From a virus (lineage: Duplodnaviria; Heunggongvirae; Uroviricota; Caudoviricetes), in the IMG/VR virus record IMGVR_UViG_2541047682_000006: a DNA stretch of 42,540 bases; one strand, 5' to 3'. Every line of letters starts with the position of its first letter. Positions within the stretch are counted from its first letter, which is position 1. Below, piece by piece: positions 5,900 to 35,701 of this stretch. Position numbers and translations under genes: made by a program. The notes beneath the pieces are model-generated. The model worked only from the letters and a program-made list of their open reading frames with translations, did not search any database and had not been told where the DNA came from.

Positions 5900-5983
5900 T
5901 TAATTTCGATTATTTTTCCCGGATGGAAAATTCTTAGAAACCGATCACATACAGCTGCATTTATTAAGGTTATCATCCGTTTC

Positions 5984-6070
5984 GCTGAAAAACATAACCC
6001 ATAAAATGCTAGCTGTACCAGGAACCACCTCCTTAGCCTGTGTAATCTCCCTTACGCAGGCTTATTTTTT
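5984..6070 (+). ncRNA. cyaR: CyaR (RyeE) Hfq-dependent sRNA; its 3' terminator end overlaps the prophage attL core
   Basis: 87-nt sequence GCTGAAAAACATAACCCATAAAATGCTAGCTGTACCAGGAACCACCTCCTTAGCCTG...CTTATTTTTT matches the CyaR sRNA as I recall it, ending in a hairpin plus T-tract; position between yegQ and ogr is as in E. coli K-12. Confidence 0.8.
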
Positions 6071-11571: not shown

Positions 11572-12776
11572 CGGTCAGGCTCCTTATAATTGCTGTTAAC
11601 CGAGGTGACCAGATTTGCCAGGTATTTATCGGTAATACGCTGGCGCAGGGTCAGGTTTTCAAGAGGAGGCACCGGTGTATAGTCGTAGTCGATATACAGT
11701 TTTCCGGCCTTGAGGGTTTCCGCATCGTTGGATTCTTCGCTGAACCAGCAGGTCGCATCCACGATATAGCCGTTTGTTTTCAGCTCACGGAATTTGGCAT
11801 TGATGCCGTCAACGATGTCGCGAATCAGCGTTGCGGTGATGGGCTTGTCCACCGCCCACATGTGCGCCTCAGCCATCGTGTCAGCCAGTACCTGCGCGGT
11901 GCGGGTGTAGTTTTCAAAGAGGAACAGCGGGTCATCAGAGCAGGTACGGTTACCCCAGAATCGGAAACCGTCGCGGCGAATCAGCGTAGTGACGCCTGAC
12001 TCGTTAAGCAGGTCAGCATCGGTGCCGGACTCCTGCAAATCCCAGAATACAGATGCGCTGATGCCGGTAACACCGTTTACCCCGACGTTGGACAGCGTTT
12101 TATGCCAGCCCTGCTCCTGGTCGATTTTAGCGCGCAGACCCAGCGCACGGGCGGTGGCATACGCGGTAGCGGTGGTACTGGTGACCGTATCCCATGCGAG
12201 GAAATCCGGCCAGATGACCATCAGCTCACGCTGGCTGAAATTCTGGCGGTAGGCTTTCACCTCGGAAATGGTCTTACAGCCCCATGCGCTGATATATCCG
12301 AAAGCGCGCAGCTTCTGACAGACGGATGCCAGTGCAACAGCCACCTCTTTGGTATCCAGTCCCGGCACACCGAGAATACGCGGTTTAACACCGGTTACCG
12401 ACTCCGCCGCCAGCAGGGCTTTTAGTCCGGTGTACTGACCGTTTTCGTCGGTGGTGCCGATGATATTGGAAACGGTCTGCGCGAGTTTCGTTTCCTCGTC
12501 ATCACCGGTGCAGTCTTCCACGCGCACGACAACGGTGACCGGTTTTGACTGGTCAGCGATGGCCTGCAACGATGCCGCCAGCGTGCCTTTTTTACCGGCC
12601 TTTGCAATTGCGCTTTGCACATTGGTAATCAGCACCGGTTTATTGAGGGGGAAGGTTTCCGCATCCGCATCGCTGGCCGTGCAGACCATGCCGACAATGG
12701 CAGTGGATACGGTGGAAATGACGCGGGTGCCGTCGTTAATCTCCAGCACCTGCACGCCATGATGATAGTCACTCAT
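11544..12776 (-). CDS. FI: Contractile tail sheath protein (P2 gpFI-like)
   Basis: 410-aa ORF, first gene of the FI-FII-E-T-U-D block; its 3' end overlaps the FII start by 28 nt. Confidence 0.85.
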   Translation of the reverse strand: MSDYHHGVQVLEINDGTRVISTVSTAIVGMVCTASDADAETFPLNKPVLITNVQSAIAKAGKKGTLAASLQAIADQSKPVTVVVRVEDCTGDDEETKLAQTVSNIIGTTDENGQYTGLKALLAAESVTGVKPRILGVPGLDTKEVAVALASVCQKLRAFGYISAWGCKTISEVKAYRQNFSQRELMVIWPDFLAWDTVTSTTATAYATARALGLRAKIDQEQGWHKTLSNVGVNGVTGISASVFWDLQESGTDADLLNESGVTTLIRRDGFRFWGNRTCSDDPLFLFENYTRTAQVLADTMAEAHMWAVDKPITATLIRDIVDGINAKFRELKTNGYIVDATCWFSEESNDAETLKAGKLYIDYDYTPVPPLENLTLRQRITDKYLANLVTSVNSNYKEPDRWQCRANSS

Positions 12777-12871: not shown

Positions 12872-12899
12872 TAAAGAAAAGGCGGGCAATTCGCCCGCC
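12872..12899 (-). terminator. Rho-independent terminator (minus strand) separating the cargo/tail-fibre transcripts from the FI operon
   Basis: GC-rich stem GGCGGGC/GCCCGCC (12881-12899, 5-nt loop) followed on the minus strand by a T-rich run (plus AGAAAA at 12875-12880). Confidence 0.5.
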
Positions 12900-12962
12900 T
12901 GTCCTGATTTGTACTCACTCATTTTCCGCCTGACAATTTACATAGCCCAAATGCTATCAAAC

Positions 12963-12974
12963 CTGACAGTCTGC
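12963..12974. repeat. 12-bp repeat CTGACAGTCTGC (copy 1), at the left edge of the AT-rich cargo island
   Basis: Exact 12-bp inverted match to 15395-15406 and 11-bp direct match to 15273-15283. Confidence 0.6.
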
Positions 12975-13106
12975 TTTGAGCGAAAAGTGGACATTAGAGT
13001 TACAAAAGCAAGTTTAAATCATCCAAAATATTACAATGTCCTTATCTATCTGATATCGTTATGATAAAAAGCTCCTGAATATAATCGATAGTAGGTGGTT
13101 ATTTCC

Positions 13107-13484
13107 ATGAAATCAATTTTAGAGGTCTTTACTCAAGGAAATACTAAAGAAAAACTGGCTGTTATCGCCGATCTCACAACCATTGCGGGAATATCGATTG
13201 CAACTATTATTGCTGGTTTGTTAACCCTAGTTGCAAAAACAGATAAACTAGATGTTGGAAATCTGTTTGGAGTTGTCATAATATCTCTGCTCGGATTGGC
13301 TGGTGTTTGCTGTTTTGTGGCCTTATTTATTTGGGTTATAACCCAAATGTCTAAACCATGGGGAACACCTCGGGGGGTTCAGCCCTTAGTTAAGTGTGCT
13401 ATTTCCCTTATCTTTATCTGTATGTTTTTGCTGGCTGTCTTTACATTTTATGAGTTTATTTCTTCGATGAGCATACGCTATTGA
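13107..13484 (+). CDS. Small hydrophobic membrane protein (~125 aa, 3-4 predicted TM helices), hypothetical
   Basis: Track ORF 13095..13484 (GTG); ATG at 13107 with an upstream AGGTGG. Hydrophobic stretches IAGISIATIIAGLLTLVA, VVIISLLGLAGVCCFVALFIWVI, ISLIFICMFLLAVFTFY. AT-rich; convergent with the recombinase gene. Confidence 0.5.
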   Translation: MKSILEVFTQGNTKEKLAVIADLTTIAGISIATIIAGLLTLVAKTDKLDVGNLFGVVIISLLGLAGVCCFVALFIWVITQMSKPWGTPRGVQPLVKCAISLIFICMFLLAVFTFYEFISSMSIRY

Positions 13485-13506
13485 ATATAAAATCAGCCCC
13501 CATAAC

Positions 13507-14091
13507 TTAAAAGAGACCTTCTATATCGACTTCAATGCCCAAATAACGGACTGTGCTTTCCAGTTTCTTATGGCCCAACAGAAGTTGGATCACCCGGAGA
13601 CTCTTGGTTTTCTTGTAGATTAAGTAAGGTTTTGTTCTTCTCATGGAATGTGTGCTGTACAGCGAATCTTCGAGACCAAGCTTTTCTACCCACCCATGAA
13701 AAATTCGGTTGTATTGCCGGGTTGATATATGGTGGTTAGTTCCGACCCGAGAGCGGAACAGGAAGCCTTTACTATGCCAGTTGCCGAGCTTTATCAATGC
13801 AGTAACCGCTTCCCTTGTCCCTTTGGTTATCTCAAATTGGACAGGGCTGCCGGTTTTCTGTTGCAACACCGTTGCTCTGCTTGAGACAGAACTGCCATAT
13901 GCAGCATCTGATACTTTGAGTTTGACCAAATCACAGCCCCGTAGCTTAGTGTCCAAAGCCATGTTGAACAGAGCTAGATCGCGTGTTTTACCTTCCAACT
14001 CAAGTCTAATCCGGATCCCCCAGATATGAAATATCTGAAGTGGCCTTTTTTGACCGATGGTACGGTCTTTATTCCACGGTGACGTTTTCAT
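13507..14091 (-). CDS. Small tyrosine site-specific recombinase (FimB/FimE-like invertase/integrase catalytic domain, ~194 aa)
   Basis: Translation carries the tyrosine-recombinase motifs in order: Arg box (ALDTKLRGCDLVKLKVSD), HSMRRT (H-x-x-R), LLGH, and RYLG (nucleophile Tyr). ATG at 14089-14091 with AGGAG Shine-Dalgarno; the track ORF starts upstream at a TTG. Confidence 0.7.
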   Translation of the reverse strand: MKTSPWNKDRTIGQKRPLQIFHIWGIRIRLELEGKTRDLALFNMALDTKLRGCDLVKLKVSDAAYGSSVSSRATVLQQKTGSPVQFEITKGTREAVTALIKLGNWHSKGFLFRSRVGTNHHISTRQYNRIFHGWVEKLGLEDSLYSTHSMRRTKPYLIYKKTKSLRVIQLLLGHKKLESTVRYLGIEVDIEGLF

Positions 14092-14197
14092 ATTCAAATC
14101 TCCTGCAATGTGGGAGATTTGAGTATGGTTGTCTCTCAAGAGCGAAAATAAGTCAACTATCACTAGTTGTTGCGCATGTACGTATTCTGTCAATTAA

Positions 14198-15040
14198 TTA
14201 TTGACAATCATCAATTCTGGAATGATCAAAATCATCATATCGAATTATAGTCTGGTTGACTGTATCTATTGTTGGTGTCATTTCTGTTATAATATCCTGA
14301 TAACCTAAAGAGTTAAATACATTTACTAAGGCCTCACACCGAAGGGCCGTAGCAATTACAAAATTATAAATTGCCAGCCGTTTATTTTCTTGTTTAACTG
14401 CAAGAATGAATTCGATAGCAGTATTTTCATCACTTTGGATTGCATTATATAGAGATACTATATTTACCATATCATCAGAGAATGTATGTATTGAATCACA
14501 AAGGGGAACGTAATGGGCATGATAGTGTGTTTCCCAGCCAATTAATTCAAAAAGTCTTCTGGTTCCTGGATATTCAGGTGTATTTGGCCACAATCTATTA
14601 AATAGATCAGTTAGTTCTTTTCCCATGCGAATCCTTTCATTTGCTGCTGGATTAGTCATTCCTTTGGATTTTAAACACTCCAGCCACCGTTTTCCATTAC
14701 TATGAACTAATTTCTTACTAGCCTTGAGTAATGCTTGTGCATTTTCGCCATCATCTATTGCTATATAAAATTGATTGGCAGCCTGTTCTATTATAACCCT
14801 AGCTAATACTTCCGATGCTGAAAAGGCTCCTATATTCAAAGAAGAGATAGCCTGATTACTAAGTTCATTCAGTACATTAAAGTACTGTAAGACCATCAAT
14901 TTTTGTTCCACACCCTTTAGGTTGTCTATTTTATTTTTATGCTCCTCAAATTTTGCATGGATATATTTATTTATCGCGGCTATTTTTTTTACATCTTCGT
15001 CAAGATCAAACGGGCAACGTCCAAACAATTCTTTTTTCAT
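14198..15040 (-). CDS. Hypothetical protein (280 aa), AT-rich cargo gene directly upstream of the recombinase
   Basis: ORF with ATG start and AGGAG Shine-Dalgarno; 4-nt gap to the recombinase ORF; preceded by a 420-bp noncoding leader containing the repeat copies. Confidence 0.6.
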   Translation of the reverse strand: MKKELFGRCPFDLDEDVKKIAAINKYIHAKFEEHKNKIDNLKGVEQKLMVLQYFNVLNELSNQAISSLNIGAFSASEVLARVIIEQAANQFYIAIDDGENAQALLKASKKLVHSNGKRWLECLKSKGMTNPAANERIRMGKELTDLFNRLWPNTPEYPGTRRLFELIGWETHYHAHYVPLCDSIHTFSDDMVNIVSLYNAIQSDENTAIEFILAVKQENKRLAIYNFVIATALRCEALVNVFNSLGYQDIITEMTPTIDTVNQTIIRYDDFDHSRIDDCQ

Positions 15041-15272
15041 ATATTTCTCCTGTTGTACAAGCTTCCATAAGTTGGCAGATTATACACTGAAGATTACCTA
15101 TAAATAGCTGTGCGGGATAGCAGATCAGTGCAAGAAGTACAACCAAGTGAACTGTGCGTATTCAGATACCTGGCCTAACGTTCGCGATAGCCGTCCCCTG
15201 CACGAAGCCATATATTAGATGTATTAGCTCAGACCTTATCTGACAGGTTGAGTAGGTAGAATCTAATCAAAG

Positions 15273-15283
15273 CTGACAGTCTG
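15273..15283. repeat. 11-bp repeat CTGACAGTCTG (copy 2, direct)
   Basis: Exact 11-bp match to 12963-12973 and inverted match to 15396-15406; lies in the leader between the 280-aa gene and G. Confidence 0.6.
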
Positions 15284-15394
15284 GTTTGGACTGTGAGTTC
15301 AACCGATGGATGCAACACACAGCGATCTACGGACATTACTAGCATAGCTGTGTATTAATCATCGGGAAGCAGGTCAGTCCGCTCCTAGCACAGA

Positions 15395-15406
15395 GCAGAC
15401 TGTCAG
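15395..15406. repeat. 12-bp repeat GCAGACTGTCAG (copy 3, inverted orientation)
   Basis: Reverse complement CTGACAGTCTGC equals 12963-12974; with copy 2 it flanks a 111-bp segment. Confidence 0.6.
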
Positions 15407-15461
15407 ATTAGGCTTTACTCTGTGCTATAGATACGTTAGCTCACTCCAGAGATCATACAAC

Positions 15462-15989
15462 TTATTGCGGCATTTCCGGCCATTCAGGATTTGCAGGATC
15501 CACACGGCTGACCAGAACACTGTAGCGTTCCCATGCTTCCAGTCGGCTACGCTCCTCATCTGTTGCCATATTCAGTCTGACAGAGCGTTCCAGTGGCTGA
15601 ATGATAGTTTCAGCTTCGGAAAGCAAAGCTGACTTCTGTAATTCCGCCAGTTGCAGCTGTTCGTCTGCCGTATAAATCCGCTTAATCACGGCACCATCCT
15701 TAAACATCCATTTACCTGAGTCATCAGCACGTCGGTTGGCGGTAATATCAGGAACCTCGACAACGCTAAAACCTTCAGGGTTGAGCGTTGAAGCATCTCT
15801 GGTGATGCCGACAATTATATTATTCTCATCGTAAACAATCTTTATCGTGTCTTCCTGAAAATTACTTACTTCCTCATACCAGTTTTTTCCCTCTTCGGAC
15901 CATAACCAGATAACATCAAAATTTTTTGTCAGTTGATATTGGGCAACAGTTTTTGGATTACCCGCAGTAATATTTTTTAAATGCTGCAT
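15462..15989 (-). CDS. G: Tail fibre assembly chaperone (P2 gpG-like)
   Basis: 175-aa ORF immediately downstream of H, at the P2 position. Confidence 0.8.
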
Positions 15990-26560: not shown

Positions 26561-27274
26561 TCAGCAGTTCGTCATCAGGGCGTCACCGCCACCACCGGTG
26601 GCCTTGCTGCGGCGCTGCTGGGTCAGACTTTCGGTGTGGTCGAGACTGTTTTTCAGGCGGGTGAATGCCTGGCTGGTTTCATCCGCCCTGTCAGTCACCT
26701 CCTGCTTAAGTGCGGAAAAGGCGGTTTCCATCTCAGCGAGGCGCTGCTCAGTGGCGCTCAGTTTTTCCTGCACATGTTCAGCAACAGCGGTCACCGCTTC
26801 ATGCACGTCATTCAGACGGGCATCATCGCTGGCCTGTTTGCGGCCAAAAATGGACTTCACCTTTTCGGTCAGGACGGTGAACACTGTTTCAGGCAGGTCT
26901 TCAAATTCCAGCTCAACAGGCGTTGCCACTGAAATCAGGTTTTCAGGGCTTAATTTGAAGCGGTTCAGGGGGTTGTGTTTTGCCGTGCGGCAGAATTCCA
27001 GGTATTCCGTGCCGAGGCTTGCCGGGTCATCGGTGACGGCCAGACCCACCAGATAACATTTGCCGGTGTTGGCAAAGTTCGGCTGAATTTCCATTGAGGT
27101 GTAGACCTTCTGCGCGGCCTTGTTCATCGCGATAAGGTCATCGGTCGGGGTGATTTTCGCAAACAGCGCCCATTTGCCTTTCAGCGCCGAATCATCGTCA
27201 ATCTTTTCGGCCTTAAGTTCGGCCACATCGCCATAACGTTTAAAAATACCGTCAGGCAGGATGCCGCGCAGATG
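26561..27274 (-). pseudogene. O: Capsid scaffold gene O, C-terminal fragment (gene interrupted by an IS element)
   Basis: Track ORF 26561..27310 matches gpO from ...HLRGILPDGIFKRYGDVAELKAEK onward; its first 12 codons (27275-27310) are read from IS sequence. Confidence 0.75.
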
Positions 27275-27360
27275 TTGCGTATTACCGTGAAGGAGATCGG
27301 TGAGTAACATCGATGGAGATCGGTTCGTGTCACTTTCACAGAACCGTTTTTAAATTACCT

Positions 27361-28110
27361 TCACTGATCTCCTTCGGTCAACGGAGATTGTATTTTCCGC
27401 ATTGATTCTCCTTTAAGTTCGATCTTGATACTGCCATGAACCAGTCGATCTAGGATGGCATCCGCATGTGTGGAGTCTCCGATCATTTTGTACCAGTTTT
27501 CCACCGGCAACTGGCTCACTACGATGATTGAGCCTCGTTGGTACATCAGATCCACTATTTCCAGCAGGTCGCTACGCTGTTCTGATGAGAGAGGTTCCAG
27601 CCCCCAGTCATCCAGAAGCAGCAGATCGCTATTATTCAGCCTGGTCAAAAGTTTGCTGTATCTTCCATCAGCATGCCCCTGATAGCACTGTTCCATCAGC
27701 GCTTTAAGGCGATAATAGTAGACCTTGTATCCCTGTCGGCAGGCATTATGACCAAGTGCACATGCCAGGAACGTTTTACCGCTGCCGGTGGCCCCGGTCA
27801 GTAAAATATTTTGTTTCAGGGTTAACCAGTTTCCCTGACTGAGTGAACGGATGAGGGCCCTGTCCAGCCCTCTATTGTTACGATAATCCAGCTTTGATAA
27901 CTCAGCATTAAGTCTGAACCGTGCATGTTTGATCAGACGCTCTGCCTTCCTGTTTTCACGGCAGGTTAGTTCTTCTGCTGTCAGTAATGACAGGCGTTCT
28001 TCGAAGCCCAGCTCCTGGTATGTGCCCGGTTGAGCAAGTTGCTTTTTAAGCGCATCACGGAAGCCGGTGAGTTTAAGTGCGGTCAGTTGTTCGTAAAGAT
28101 GATTCATCAT
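27361..28110 (-). CDS. istB: IstB-like ATP-binding transposition helper (IS21 family)
   Basis: 249-aa ORF with Walker A (GATGSGKT) and Walker B (LLLLDDWG), typical of IstB. Confidence 0.85.
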   Translation of the reverse strand: MMNHLYEQLTALKLTGFRDALKKQLAQPGTYQELGFEERLSLLTAEELTCRENRKAERLIKHARFRLNAELSKLDYRNNRGLDRALIRSLSQGNWLTLKQNILLTGATGSGKTFLACALGHNACRQGYKVYYYRLKALMEQCYQGHADGRYSKLLTRLNNSDLLLLDDWGLEPLSSEQRSDLLEIVDLMYQRGSIIVVSQLPVENWYKMIGDSTHADAILDRLVHGSIKIELKGESMRKIQSPLTEGDQ

Positions 28111-28121
28111 TGGATCCCGTA

Positions 28122-29663
28122 TCAGTGGTAATACTCACTGCCGCGTACGTTTTCGTGTTCCATCGTGGATAACAGATCTGGTTTTGGATCCTGAACAGGT
28201 TGTTTATCCAGACCTTTTTCCAGGATCGATTTAATACCTGACAGACGCCATACCTTTGTTTTCAGAGCTCTTGCACATGCTGCATTAAGTCTGGCTTTAC
28301 TGTATTTTTTATGAAGGTTCAGGAGTCCAAGGCAGAAGCGATAGCTTTGTTCCGGATGTGGACGAGAGTTCAGTATATGAAGCACATAACTATGAGTTTC
28401 ACTGCCTATGTGCCCCGCCCATTCCAGAAGACGCTCTGGCGTCCAGGTGGCATGCTGTCGATGAGCTTCAGGCATGTGCTCGTTGCGGGTACTGTAGCCA
28501 TAAGTACGCTTGCGCGGGTGCACAGCAACCTCCTGCCCCTGATTGAAGAGTCTTACCAGTTCTCCGGAGATCCATGCTTCCAGTTGCTGGCCTAACAGCG
28601 AACATGGAACCGAGTAGTAATGTTTGTCGATTTCCACGTGGTAATCGGCATGAACTCTGACTTTCTTCACCAGGGTGTAACTGTAACTGGCTTCAGGAAG
28701 AGGCTTCAGTGCGGGTTTATCAAGCTGGATGAAGAGTTCTGCACGTGAATAACCCAACTTCTGCATTATTTTGTTATTCAGTCTTTCCAGCAACTCCCGA
28801 ATGCGCTGATTAAGCGATGCAAGGCTGTAGAAGATCTCATGCCTGATTCGGGCCATGATCCAGCGTTCAACAACCTGAACGCCAACTTCAGCTTTGGCTT
28901 TATCTTTCGGTTTACGTGGCCGCGCAGGCAAAACTGCGACATTATAATGCTCAAGCATCTGCTGGTAGGTAGGGTTAACGTCAGGATCATACTTACATGC
29001 CCTGGATGTGGCGCTTTTCAGATTGTCCGGAACAACAAGTTCAGGAACGCCACCCAACCACTGGAAGCAGCGAACATGACTCATCACCCAGTCTTCAAGC
29101 TGCTGAGACCAGGTGGCCTCTGCCCATGTGTAACTTGATGCCCCGAGAACAGCTACGATGACCTGAGCAGTTCTTATTTCTCCGGTCTCAGGGTCGGTAA
29201 CGCCAACGGTAGGTCCACAGTAATCAACGAAAAGTTTTTCGCCAGCTTTATGTACCTGACGCATTGATGGTGAAGTGGTTTTGAGCCATTCACGGTACAT
29301 CCGGCAGTAATGGTTATAGCTGTAAAAACCGCCTGGATTACGCTCACAGTATTCTTCCCAGAGTAGCTGCAGCGTCACGCATTTATTACGCAGTTCCCGG
29401 TGTACTGTAGCCCAGTCAGGCAGAGAGTGCTTCTTCATCTTAACCTGGGTCTGAAGGAACGCATGTTTTAGTTTTGTATCATCCCATCCTGTAGGTAAGG
29501 GCCACTGCTTTATGCCAAGTTGAGCCGCCCGATTAGCATATCTGGATACAACGGAAGGGGAGATTGCAAGACTACGACCAATTTGTCGATGGCTGAGTCC
29601 AACACCGTATTTAAGCCTAAGAATTTCTTTAAGTTTTCTCATAGAAATTGGAACTGTTGGCAT
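28122..29663 (-). CDS. istA: IstA-like transposase (IS21 family, DDE)
   Basis: 513-aa ORF with N-terminal HTH region and a central DDE-type catalytic core, immediately upstream of istB. Confidence 0.8.
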   Translation of the reverse strand: MPTVPISMRKLKEILRLKYGVGLSHRQIGRSLAISPSVVSRYANRAAQLGIKQWPLPTGWDDTKLKHAFLQTQVKMKKHSLPDWATVHRELRNKCVTLQLLWEEYCERNPGGFYSYNHYCRMYREWLKTTSPSMRQVHKAGEKLFVDYCGPTVGVTDPETGEIRTAQVIVAVLGASSYTWAEATWSQQLEDWVMSHVRCFQWLGGVPELVVPDNLKSATSRACKYDPDVNPTYQQMLEHYNVAVLPARPRKPKDKAKAEVGVQVVERWIMARIRHEIFYSLASLNQRIRELLERLNNKIMQKLGYSRAELFIQLDKPALKPLPEASYSYTLVKKVRVHADYHVEIDKHYYSVPCSLLGQQLEAWISGELVRLFNQGQEVAVHPRKRTYGYSTRNEHMPEAHRQHATWTPERLLEWAGHIGSETHSYVLHILNSRPHPEQSYRFCLGLLNLHKKYSKARLNAACARALKTKVWRLSGIKSILEKGLDKQPVQDPKPDLLSTMEHENVRGSEYYH

Positions 29664-33484: not shown

Positions 33485-35701
33485 ATGGAACTTAGATTAA
33501 AAAATGTTACCAGTTATAAGAAAGACGCCTTCACAATACTGAATCTTGAAAAAAGAGTAAACATACTATACGGCCAAAATGGTTGTGGCAAATCTACCAT
33601 TTCAAATTATTTCTACGACTCTACACACACAGATTATAACGAGTGTGAATGTACCCTTCTTGACAATTACAAACCTCTTGTTTACAACACTAAATTTATT
33701 GAAGATAACTTCTATAATGCACAGGAACAAAAAGGTGTTTTTACATTAAGTAAAGAAAATGCAGATATTGAAAAACAATTAATTGAAAAAGAAGCAATTA
33801 AACAGCAACTCACAGAGCAATATAGACAAAAAAAAGGAGTGTTATTGAAATTAGAAGCAGAAATGGAAAAAAAAGAAAATGAATACATCGAATCGATCTG
33901 GAAAAAAACAGAACCAATCAGAAACTCTGTACTAAAAACCTTAATGAAAGGTAAAGTTGGCTATAAAAGACCTTTTTTTGAGATGATAAAATCATCCTCA
34001 CCAATCACCTTTATTAATTTAAATGATATAGCAAAAGAATACTCTATACTATTAGAAAATAGAAACAATGAAACCGCATTAATAACTCCTTTACATCCAT
34101 ATACCCCATCAATTGATGATGTAAATACATTAGCAACACCTATAATAGATACAAGCAATAGCTATTTATCAGAAACCATTAATAAACTTCATAATCTTGA
34201 CTGGGTAAAAAAAGGTAAAGAACATTATTTAGACGGTTCTACATGTCCGTTTTGTCAGGAAAAAACTATTAGTCACGAATTTTTAAATGCCCTTAAATCA
34301 ATATTTGACGAAAGTTATTCAAAGAAAGTAAAACAGCTCTCAGATATAAAGTCAGTTTATGAGAAAAATACCATATATCATTTTAACGAAATACAAAACA
34401 ATATATCATCATGTGCACTAATCAATGAGAAAGATAAAGAGAACATTATTTCCAATATTAAAATATTGCAAAACATTGCAGAAAAAAATTTAATAAACAT
34501 TATTGATAAGATCAACAATCCATCAACATGCGTTACATTAGAAATTGATAAAGAACTAGAAAATCATGTTCAGGAAAGCATAGGCGCTGTTAACAAGAAA
34601 ATAAGAGACATAAATGATAAGGTTAAAAAACTCAAAGAGTATGAGAATAAAATCGGAAAACAAGTTTGGGGGGCTCTCCATGCTTTTTGCAGCGATGATT
34701 TAGAGAATTTATCCAAACACAAAGAAAAATTCTTTGATATCAAAAAGAAAGTTCATGATGAATTAAATAATATTGAGCAACAAGGAAAAGAAAATAATCT
34801 CACAATAAAAGCATTGCGAGATAAAATATCTAACATTGATTCTACGATAGACTCAATAAACACCCATTTAAAAAATCTAGGGATCTCTGGTTTTTGTATT
34901 GAAAAACATGCAGAAAGAAAAGATATGTACATTATATCTCGACCAGGGCATACAAAAAACCAAAATGTTTATAGATCTCTTAGCGAAGGTGAAAAAACAC
35001 TAATAACGTTTCTTTATTTTTTAGAGTGCTGTAAAGGTAAAACCGATAAAAATGATACCGATAGCAGGGATATTTTTATTGTTATTGACGATCCAATATC
35101 TAGTCTATCGCAAAACTATGTCTACGACATCGCATCAATTATTCATCACCACATTATAAAAAATGAATTAACAAAGAAGGTATTAATCCTTACTCACAAT
35201 CTTTATTTCTTTCATGAACTTATTAAGCTATCTCCTAAAAGCAGAGAAGACAAACTATTTAAGAAAAACTATTATCTAGGTAGAGTAACGAAAAATGATT
35301 TTAGTATAATTACTGAAATACAAAAAAACAGCATACAGAATGAATATCAATCTTTGTGGCAAATATTAAAAGATGCAAAAGATGGCAAAGCAAACAAAAT
35401 CATAATACCGAATATTATGAGAAACATACTAGAATATTATTTTGCATTTGTTCATAGAACAGATGCTCTACAAGATGAATTAACAAAGTTGGCACGCGAC
35501 GATAGCAACAGTGATTTCAAAGCATTCTACAGATACATTAACAGAGGTTCTCACTCTGATGCGGTAAATATTACTGATATGGGCGACATAGACCCAGATA
35601 AATACCTAAAACAATTGAGAACAATATTTTCAGCTACTGGTGACGAAATGCATTATTTAAAAATGATGGACGAACTAGAAGAGGAAAACGTTACCGCTTA
35701 G
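33485..35701 (+). CDS. RloC/PrrC-like ABC ATPase (738 aa) with coiled-coil insert carrying a CxxC motif; putative anticodon nuclease or abortive-infection ATPase
   Basis: Walker A GQNGCGKST near the N-terminus; long Lys/Glu-rich coiled-coil region containing CPFC; ABC signature-like LSEGEK, Walker B IFIVIDDP, H-loop LTHN; C-terminal MRNILE...H arrangement (R-x3-E then His). AT-rich single gene at the P2 old/tin position with AGG Shine-Dalgarno. Confidence 0.5.
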   Translation: MELRLKNVTSYKKDAFTILNLEKRVNILYGQNGCGKSTISNYFYDSTHTDYNECECTLLDNYKPLVYNTKFIEDNFYNAQEQKGVFTLSKENADIEKQLIEKEAIKQQLTEQYRQKKGVLLKLEAEMEKKENEYIESIWKKTEPIRNSVLKTLMKGKVGYKRPFFEMIKSSSPITFINLNDIAKEYSILLENRNNETALITPLHPYTPSIDDVNTLATPIIDTSNSYLSETINKLHNLDWVKKGKEHYLDGSTCPFCQEKTISHEFLNALKSIFDESYSKKVKQLSDIKSVYEKNTIYHFNEIQNNISSCALINEKDKENIISNIKILQNIAEKNLINIIDKINNPSTCVTLEIDKELENHVQESIGAVNKKIRDINDKVKKLKEYENKIGKQVWGALHAFCSDDLENLSKHKEKFFDIKKKVHDELNNIEQQGKENNLTIKALRDKISNIDSTIDSINTHLKNLGISGFCIEKHAERKDMYIISRPGHTKNQNVYRSLSEGEKTLITFLYFLECCKGKTDKNDTDSRDIFIVIDDPISSLSQNYVYDIASIIHHHIIKNELTKKVLILTHNLYFFHELIKLSPKSREDKLFKKNYYLGRVTKNDFSIITEIQKNSIQNEYQSLWQILKDAKDGKANKIIIPNIMRNILEYYFAFVHRTDALQDELTKLARDDSNSDFKAFYRYINRGSHSDAVNITDMGDIDPDKYLKQLRTIFSATGDEMHYLKMMDELEEENVTA

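Follow-up and report, generated by a model that had tools for sequence, protein, structure and literature searches.

The Z/fun island of a P2-like Escherichia coli prophage as two cassettes in a slot between unlike 24-nt sites, with a probable cognate tyrosine recombinase

Introduction

The Z/fun hotspot of phage P2 and its inverted repeats are already known, and the repeats around fun, proposed to enable site-specific exchange with enterobacterial genomes, have been attributed to Nilsson 2004 (PMC8987985). A 2026 survey of thousands of P2/P4 elements described an extremely fast swapping of defence genes at hotspots, by a mechanism that is still to be elucidated (PMC13586616). The present work deals with the Z/fun locus in the IMG/VR virus record IMGVR_UViG_2541047682_000006, a stretch of 42,540 nucleotides (hereafter the window) that is a segment of an E. 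coli chromosome with a P2-like prophage adjoining the gene of the small RNA (sRNA) CyaR, and in particular with an AT-rich island of three open reading frames (ORFs) found there between the tail genes FI and G. As far as the citing review reports them, the repeats of Nilsson 2004 share with this island the locus and the inverted arrangement around the cargo; here, however, the cargo carries a member of a tyrosine recombinase family that is flanked by the same sites. Full-text literature searches, in which Nilsson 2004 was accessible through the citing review only, returned no description of an enzyme acting on the Z/fun repeats or of the array grammar reported below, which is built on two unlike types of 24-nt site termed RH and LH.

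Among the described systems, the integron is the closest analogue, the likeness being one of architecture only. Both associate a tyrosine recombinase with polar arrays of short cargo units and with composite sites of about 70 nt made of two inverted simple sites, the outermost site bases being AAC...GTT in both, and both carry a cargo mix of GNAT enzymes, transporters, regulators and anti-phage genes. However, the integron integrase IntI has about 320 amino acids (aa), whereas the enzyme described here has 194-200 aa, consists of the catalytic domain only and remains below the cut-offs of the integron-integrase models (17.8 bits against 265 and 435). Located within the array and not at its head, the gene of this enzyme shares the orientation of the array and stands between a site termed LH' and RH; no attI or Pc was identified here, the sites have no sequence relationship to attC, any selection for pairing of LH with RH is weak at best, and the platform is carried by phages, islands and plasmids.

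Other systems share part of this design. The pdif modules of Acinetobacter plasmids consist of cargo bounded by inverted unlike sites and shuffled among replicons, in which the host XerCD acts on dif-like sites, whereas here a dedicated small recombinase is found together with sites that bear no resemblance to dif. The invertases FimB and FimE are likewise tyrosine recombinases that have about 200 aa and lack a large N-terminal DNA-binding domain, but the recombinase described here is tied to cassette arrays and not to a promoter switch, and no inversion was seen. In Bacillota, small serine recombinases mark defence genes (RADS), with DUF5677 among the enriched domains (PMC12632615, PMC13552941). 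These share with the present locus a small recombinase gene standing beside variable defence-type cargo, and differ from it in the use of serine instead of tyrosine chemistry, in their occurrence in Bacillota instead of Enterobacterales, and in that no slot of the RH/LH type has been described for them.

For the window, it is considered probable, at roughly 0.7, that the island is a load of two cassettes in one site-bounded slot, one of which brought its probable cognate recombinase and was then immobilised by a deletion. The wider proposal, namely that an integron-like platform made of a recombinase of about 200 aa and the unlike 24-nt sites RH and LH serves Z/fun as well as hundreds of enterobacterial slots in prophages, islands and plasmids, is put forward tentatively, with odds that fall somewhat short of even.

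A site-bounded cargo slot between FI and G

Between FI (the tail sheath gene, 11586-12776) and G (tail-fibre assembly, 15462-15989), which are both on the minus strand, the window holds three ORFs in DNA with a G+C content of 0.33-0.46, against 0.51-0.60 in the flanks. The initial annotation had placed an AT-rich segment with three genes at the P2 Z/fun hotspot, and both the flanking genes and the homology borders to P2, P2_2H1, P2_4C9 and 12474II bear out this location. Its extent, which had been given as 12902-15461, had to be narrowed: since the backbone homology found by BLAST against these genomes stops at 12995-12998 and restarts at 15377, the variable DNA is 12993-15376. A 33-nt inverted repeat is located exactly at both ends of the backbone homology. 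The entire island is present at an identity of at least 99% in 36 of 5426 complete E. coli genomes, including that of the type strain ATCC 11775, and it was not found among 50,697 deposited phage genomes.

The FI-side border of the slot carries, within conserved P2 backbone, an LH-type site (site A, 12969-12992, minus strand, which reads GTCCACTTTTCGCTCAAAGCAGAC) that stands 5 positions off the LH consensus, with a chance expectation of 7e-3 in the window, and P2 homology ends 3-6 nt past it. The G-side border is formed by an RH-type site (site C, 15377-15400, minus strand, which reads GTCTGCTCTGTGCTAGGAGCGGAC), the entry point of the cassette with DUF5677 and the recombinase; it is only 2 positions off the RH consensus, and its chance expectation in the window is 1.5e-6. 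Site C is the sole match of 8 bits or more to a position weight matrix (PWM) in the 42.5-kb window, and no 24-mers there other than sites A and C come within 7 substitutions of either consensus. Both sites also surround Z/fun in P2 itself, where the equivalent of site A differs at 2 positions. Judged from these alignments, the P2 Z/fun locus is a cargo slot between two conserved inward-facing 24-nt sites, RH beside G and LH beside FI, and the AT-rich island is best described as two cassettes in this one slot and not as a three-gene unit. A stretch at 15240-15297 (site B) was also considered as a third recombination site; it fails the RH and LH consensus and belongs to the leader of the incoming cassette.

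The PWM was built from the conserved DNA found 3' of the recombinase genes of the family. In 56 family loci the recombinase stop codon is followed by a short hairpin and then by ..CCCTGTGCCAGRAGCGGAC/GTT, beyond which the loci are unrelated, and ..CAGCCCTGTGCCAGRAGCGGAC/GTT is found within 25 nt 3' of 56 family genes. The 24-nt RH consensus is GTCcGCTcTGTGCCAGgAGCGGAC, then gTT, and the 24-nt LH consensus is AAc, then GTCCGCTCCTCGCTCAtAGCgGAC. Both sites have inverted 7-nt arms, GTCCGCT and AGCGGAC, around a conserved centre of 8-10 nt, which is TGTGCCAG in RH and, given as the reverse complement, TGAGCGAG in LH; LH is approximately the reverse complement of RH, and the two centres differ. Inverted arms around a conserved centre are the anatomy of a tyrosine-recombinase core site.

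Scanning 1.56 Mb around the family genes with the PWM yielded about ninety further strong matches, nearly all of them on the recombinase strand. With up to 5 substitutions allowed, the 54 loci contain 208 sites, of which 203 point the same way as the recombinase gene; these 208 sites compare with a chance expectation of about 0.2 in 1.5 Mb, a figure obtained by simple arithmetic from the computed per-position probability. LH and RH often stand 18 nt apart and so make up a composite site of about 70 nt (30 composite sites with a gap of 10-19 nt, mostly of 18 nt), and the order along an array is RH, cargo, LH-18 nt-RH, cargo, LH'-recombinase-RH, cargo. The exact RH pattern was found in 72 IMG/VR contigs, in about 58 of which RH lies 60-90 nt downstream of a homologue of G, and at least 34 distinct cargo starts follow directly after RH in phage contigs.

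A recombinase family associated with the sites

The recombinases of these loci form a very large family of about 200 aa that is strongly conserved, consists of the catalytic domain only and extends, with 75-96% identity, across Enterobacterales and marine Gammaproteobacteria. Of the 5426 complete E. coli genomes, 942 (17%) carry a member, among them those of Nissle 1917 and ATCC 25922. The genes lie inside polar RH-cargo-LH arrays in prophages, islands and plasmids, as exemplified by an island of Nissle 1917 and a Qin-like prophage, and the recombinase gene is itself flanked by an LH-type site and RH. The 59 slots analysed range from 0.46 to 10.5 kb and carry general cargo (MFS and LysE transporters, GNAT acetyltransferases, LysR and AraC regulators) along with defence cargo, including DUF4238, GmrSD, NsnA, PD-T4-2, Septu, Dsr1, a CBASS cyclase with a 4TM effector, Lit and restriction enzymes; family recombinases are also found beside AbiGi, ars genes and GSHPx. 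Because the slot genes are mixed in this way, the platform is general and defence-rich, and not defence-specific. In the Nissle 1917 locus (L187, NZ_CP058217.1 3930877-3949495), an intact recombinase, WP_001305361.1, lies within an RH-cargo-LH array whose slots include an ETEC_3214-family protein and a TonB-receptor/ABC-transporter operon, and which adjoins dynamin, RdcB and patatin genes.

The same observations bear on an explanation in which the sites are mere terminators, insulators or repeats of the P2 backbone, the exchange of cargo goes through homologous recombination within G and FI, and the recombinase is an incidental passenger. In its favour, P2 relatives share flanks with 80-95% identity, sufficient for homologous exchange, the recombinase is absent from most hotspots, and a terminator-like hairpin lies at 12880-12900, near site A. 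However, the same sites bound slots in non-phage islands, in plasmids and in lambdoid prophages without P2 flanks; they are 98% co-oriented with a recombinase gene that stands between LH' and RH; their inverted arms and conserved centre are those of a recombinase core site; and the cassette that the window shares with a Buttiauxella chromosome begins inside RH, between unrelated flanks. This explanation is regarded as unlikely.

The incoming cassette, its recombinase and its scar

In the reading of the island as two cassettes, the second of them has 1.85 kb and comprises a leader, the DUF5677 gene, an LH' site, a hairpin and the recombinase gene. The module 13526-15400 has 96.6% identity to a stretch of an array in the Buttiauxella chromosome (L032), and the DNA shared by the two starts within RH: the right half of the site (AGGAGCGGAC) and all the cargo are common, whereas the left half and the upstream DNA differ, the window having P2 gene G upstream and L032 a composite LH-RH site. 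Shared DNA that begins inside RH between unrelated flanks fits the prediction of site-specific insertion at RH. The idea of a self-mobile cassette, raised by the initial annotation, gains from this start in a recombination site in two unrelated contexts and from the genome-wide association of the family with the sites. Another copy of the module, with 87-89% identity and a 73-nt deletion within the recombinase, is found in a lambdoid prophage of E. coli (L002), and an IMG/VR variant (L170) has kept DUF5677, with the recombinase down to 35 codons. In the lambdoid prophage loci L002-L005 the module adjoins an AAA_15/AAA_21 ATPase pair and hok/rem, and in L002 an IS3 element abuts it.

The recombinase gene of the window (13507-14091, minus strand) encodes 194 aa, made of the catalytic domain and a 35-aa N-terminal extension. 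Its assignment as a tyrosine recombinase was confirmed by a match to PF00589 (64.4 bits against a cut-off of 27.1, E 1.5e-17) and by the catalytic set R51, K79, H148, R151, H174 and Y183, which is invariant in the family and entirely kept in the window copy. The profile aligns to XerD residues 131-279 only, that is, to the catalytic domain; the Xer models remained below their cut-offs (XerC 42.7 bits against 335, XerD 25 against 330, XerA 48.6 against 220), with no N-terminal core-binding domain aligned, and the same holds for the Fim-type invertase models (PRK09871 22.2 bits against 222, PRK09870 13.8 against 221), which deprives the earlier label of a FimB/E-like enzyme of its basis. The disrupted catalytic tyrosine that had been named as the mark of a mere integrase remnant is not what the gene displays: Y183 is kept, and the truncation is C-terminal instead, the family ending in ..IEVDDALEISESIEV and the window copy in ..IEVDIEGLF, with loss of the conserved tail DDAL..ISESIEV.

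The start codon is the ATG at 14091 (MKTSPWNK) in all relatives and in RefSeq. Counted from it, the spacer between the DUF5677 and recombinase genes measures 106 nt and contains a degenerate site and a hairpin over the ribosome-binding site; the 4-nt spacing given in the initial annotation applies to a TTG-extended ORF of 228 aa only. The hairpin (14088-14128, minus strand), with 15-bp arms that are 93% complementary, pairs with the Shine-Dalgarno sequence (GGAG) and the ATG of the recombinase, and it is kept in 33 relatives, in which 4 of the 14 predicted pairs have compensatory changes. Upstream of it lies the degenerate LH'-type site (14131-14154, minus strand, which reads GACTTATTTTCGCTCTTGAGAGAC), with a decayed left arm; the same position reads GTCCGCTnnTCGCTCATAAGGGAC in relatives, and it is seen as minus-strand PWM matches at -66 in many loci.

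The 3' end of the gene is marked by a junction at 13525/13526, at which the terminator loop of the neighbouring membrane-protein gene is joined to recombinase codon 189. In the sister prophage L112 the terminator hairpin 3' of the membrane-protein gene reads AAAAGAGACCTT-CTAT-AAGGTCTCTTTT, while the window breaks within the loop after ..CTTCTATA and then reads TCGACTTCAATGCC, the reverse complement of the G-I-E-V-D codons; the recombinase homology of every relative ends at 13525. Because the junction lies in the terminator loop, the homology stops at 13525 and the protein end is altered, the arrangement is read as an illegitimate deletion of about 0.4 kb that took, together with about 325 nt of the resident cassette, the last 11 codons and the RH site of the recombinase. 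With the C-terminal tail of the recombinase and its own RH site removed by this deletion, the cassette is probably immobile now. The ratio of non-synonymous to synonymous substitution rates (dN/dS) is 0.59 for the recombinase between the window and L032, its closest relative, a value drawn from just 12 differences, against 0.06-0.08 in the family. These comparisons mark the window recombinase as decaying after its arrival while the cargo gene is kept.

That the cassette should still be mobile, with the truncated recombinase active on the backbone sites RH (C) and LH (A), is decidedly improbable. All six catalytic residues are intact, and the recombinase ORF is open and identical in 36 genomes; against this, the conserved tail is gone, the RH site of the cassette is deleted and its LH' degenerate, the two sites that are left are unlike and in inverted orientation, all genomes examined have the same fixed arrangement, and the dN/dS of the recombinase is relaxed.

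Two separate cargo genes

The other part of the double load is the resident cassette (12993-13525, plus strand), which consists of the membrane-protein gene and the 5' half of its terminator hairpin. The gene (13107-13484, plus strand) encodes a protein of 125 aa with three helices that matches phrog_4155 of PHROG. The segment 12996-13524 is present in 64 E. coli genomes, and two sister prophages, L112 and L114, carry the gene of the identical protein, WP_000836023.1, as the only cargo of the slot. The slot of a further prophage (L113, E. coli LS4, NZ_CP024717.1) holds a DUF6650 gene and the same membrane protein with a composite LH-18 nt-RH site between them, which is a clean natural example of the array grammar within a phage. 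The membrane-protein family is confined to Enterobacterales and also occurs in other mobile elements, and one member lies in an RH-LH slot of Serratia. From its distribution, the gene is an older resident cassette, separate from the cassette of DUF5677 and the recombinase. The suggestion in the initial annotation that it could be a partner or an immunity component of the 280-aa protein finds no support in view of its occurrence as sole cargo and of the illegitimate deletion that makes up its junction with the recombinase.

As its cargo the incoming cassette brings the 280-aa protein (14198-15040, minus strand). This protein had been described as belonging to no recognisable family; when the profile search was run, it matched DUF5677 (PF18928) over residues 50-194 with 39.5 bits against the Pfam gathering cut-off of 27.1 (E 8e-10), and it also corresponds to phrog_4167. 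Its AlphaFold2 model is all helices, with a predicted local distance difference test (pLDDT) score of 77, and an invariant Y-H..Y.PLCDS.H..SDD block is present. Structure searches with this model returned no informative neighbour, a profile search of the PDB gave no match, and no function was assigned by PADLOC, NCBIfam or PHROGs; none of the three proteins of the island matched a PADLOC-DB v2 family at E 0.1 or better. The gene is retained in all the decay variants (L002, L170 and the window), with a dN/dS of 0.25-0.37, and this pattern marks DUF5677 as the selected cargo of the incoming cassette. Relatives of DUF5677 are found alone in moron positions of lambdoid prophages, beside defence-like genes, and some of them have no recombinase at all. 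Both DUF5677 and the membrane protein may take part in phage exclusion or defence, which is a guess from their location only.

The leader of the cassette (15041-15376, minus strand) has a perfect TATAAT at 15084-15079, a hairpin ACAGTC-n7-GACTGT at 15274-15292 and a 49-nt partial copy of the backbone, and it is co-conserved with the DUF5677 gene, from RH onward in L032 and from 15325 in L002. The 49-nt copy forms a direct repeat (D1, 71% identity) between 12930-12978, in the backbone beside site A, and 15240-15288, in the leader, where it includes the hairpin; in L002 and L032 the leader copy accompanies the cassette. Directly after RH, the opening 43-46 nt of the cassette (15334-15379) are found again at L030 7998-8043, at the end of an unrelated CBS-protein slot and just before an LH site, in other E. 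coli genomes.

In another reading, the island is a defence operon of three genes, and DUF5677 works in it with two functional partners, the recombinase, acting on DNA, and the membrane protein. In its favour, the three genes are adjacent in a known defence hotspot, and DUF5677 genes are enriched beside serine recombinases in Bacillota. This reading is very improbable, as the membrane protein stands alone in sister prophages, DUF5677 relatives exist without recombinase, the neighbours of the recombinase family include unrelated cargo (AbiGi, ars genes and GSHPx, for example), DUF5677 is retained where the recombinase decays, and the proteins have no PADLOC match.

The phase-variable module suggested by the initial annotation, in which the recombinase would flip the cargo or an inner promoter as FimB/FimE do on fimS, is hardly credible: the recombinase is small (about 200 aa) as in FimB/E and RH (C) and LH (A) are mutually inverted, but the island is collinear in all 36 complete genomes, inverted cargo was seen in none of the 75 shared-cargo comparisons (51 hotspots with both sites), the central regions of RH and LH are unlike, the invertase model gave 22 bits against its cut-off of 222, and the would-be invertase is truncated and has lost its own site. 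Internal inverted repeats, tried as candidates for an invertible switch, lie only within ORFs or are identical with the hairpin at the ribosome-binding site, and no pair surrounds a promoter.

Proposed mechanism and its implications

In the mechanism proposed for the two-cassette island and for the wider platform, the family recombinase would act on RH and LH, as its association with the sites suggests. The cargo would move either as circles, made of cargo and a site, that integrate at RH, or by double exchange at both unlike sites. The recombinase of the window would have arrived with its cargo and later been disabled, DUF5677 being left as a fixed accessory gene, and DUF5677 and the membrane protein would be independent accessory genes. 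The anatomy of the sites and cassettes is established by sequence comparison, while the relationship between enzyme and site is suggested by a strong association.

Several points weigh against this proposal. The link between enzyme and sites is one of association only, and the comparison of the window with L032 places the crossover inside RH and resolves its position no finer. Most phage hotspots with the sites carry no recombinase, so that the enzyme would need to act in trans there, and ATCC 11775 has a truncated copy of the recombinase only. Homologous recombination within conserved tail genes could likewise account for the turnover of cargo. Within one composite site, LH and RH are complementary at 18.43 of 27 positions, a value reached by 206 of 5000 permutations, against 18.06 for partners across sites; since LH and RH of one composite site are barely more complementary to each other than to the partners in other sites, the case for a folded substrate of the integron kind is at most marginal. 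In addition, the RH/LH system may already bear a name in the literature, and in Enterococcus the active defence genes did not include a DUF5677 gene that was tested (PMC12632615, PMC13552941).

The Z/fun hotspot and its repeats being known, what is brought here is an enzyme for which no prior description was found, and a grammar of enzyme and sites that orders the accessory genes carried by prophages, islands and plasmids in many Enterobacterales. It offers a testable answer to the question of how phages exchange accessory and defence genes and, if true, would provide the mobilisation function that has been missing to account for the rapid swapping of defence genes. Should the enzyme act on the sites, the transfer of cargo between unrelated replicons without flanking homology would be explained, RH and LH would provide a sequence rule for locating cargo slots and hence new defence genes, and the pair of unlike sites would represent a natural cassette-exchange system of possible use in engineering.

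Other features of the prophage

The same prophage has a hotspot at the tin/old position, between Q and A (33485-35701), which carries a 738-aa AAA_13 ATPase that matches the PADLOC candidate system PDC-S06 (E 1e-254). No RH or LH sites were found around it by the consensus scan, and the mechanism is therefore specific to Z/fun in this prophage. The CyaR (RyeE) sRNA gene at 5982-6067 (100 bits), the sole match of the Rfam scan of the window, lies beside the tail-gene end of the prophage, a location known as a P2-type attachment region. An IS21-family element (27361-29663, with istA at 28122-29663 and istB at 27361-28110, minus strand) is inserted between the scaffold gene O and the terminase gene P. 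The gpO ORF (26561-27310) matches its Pfam profile only from profile position 40 and is therefore taken to be cut at the N-terminus; the prophage is probably defective.

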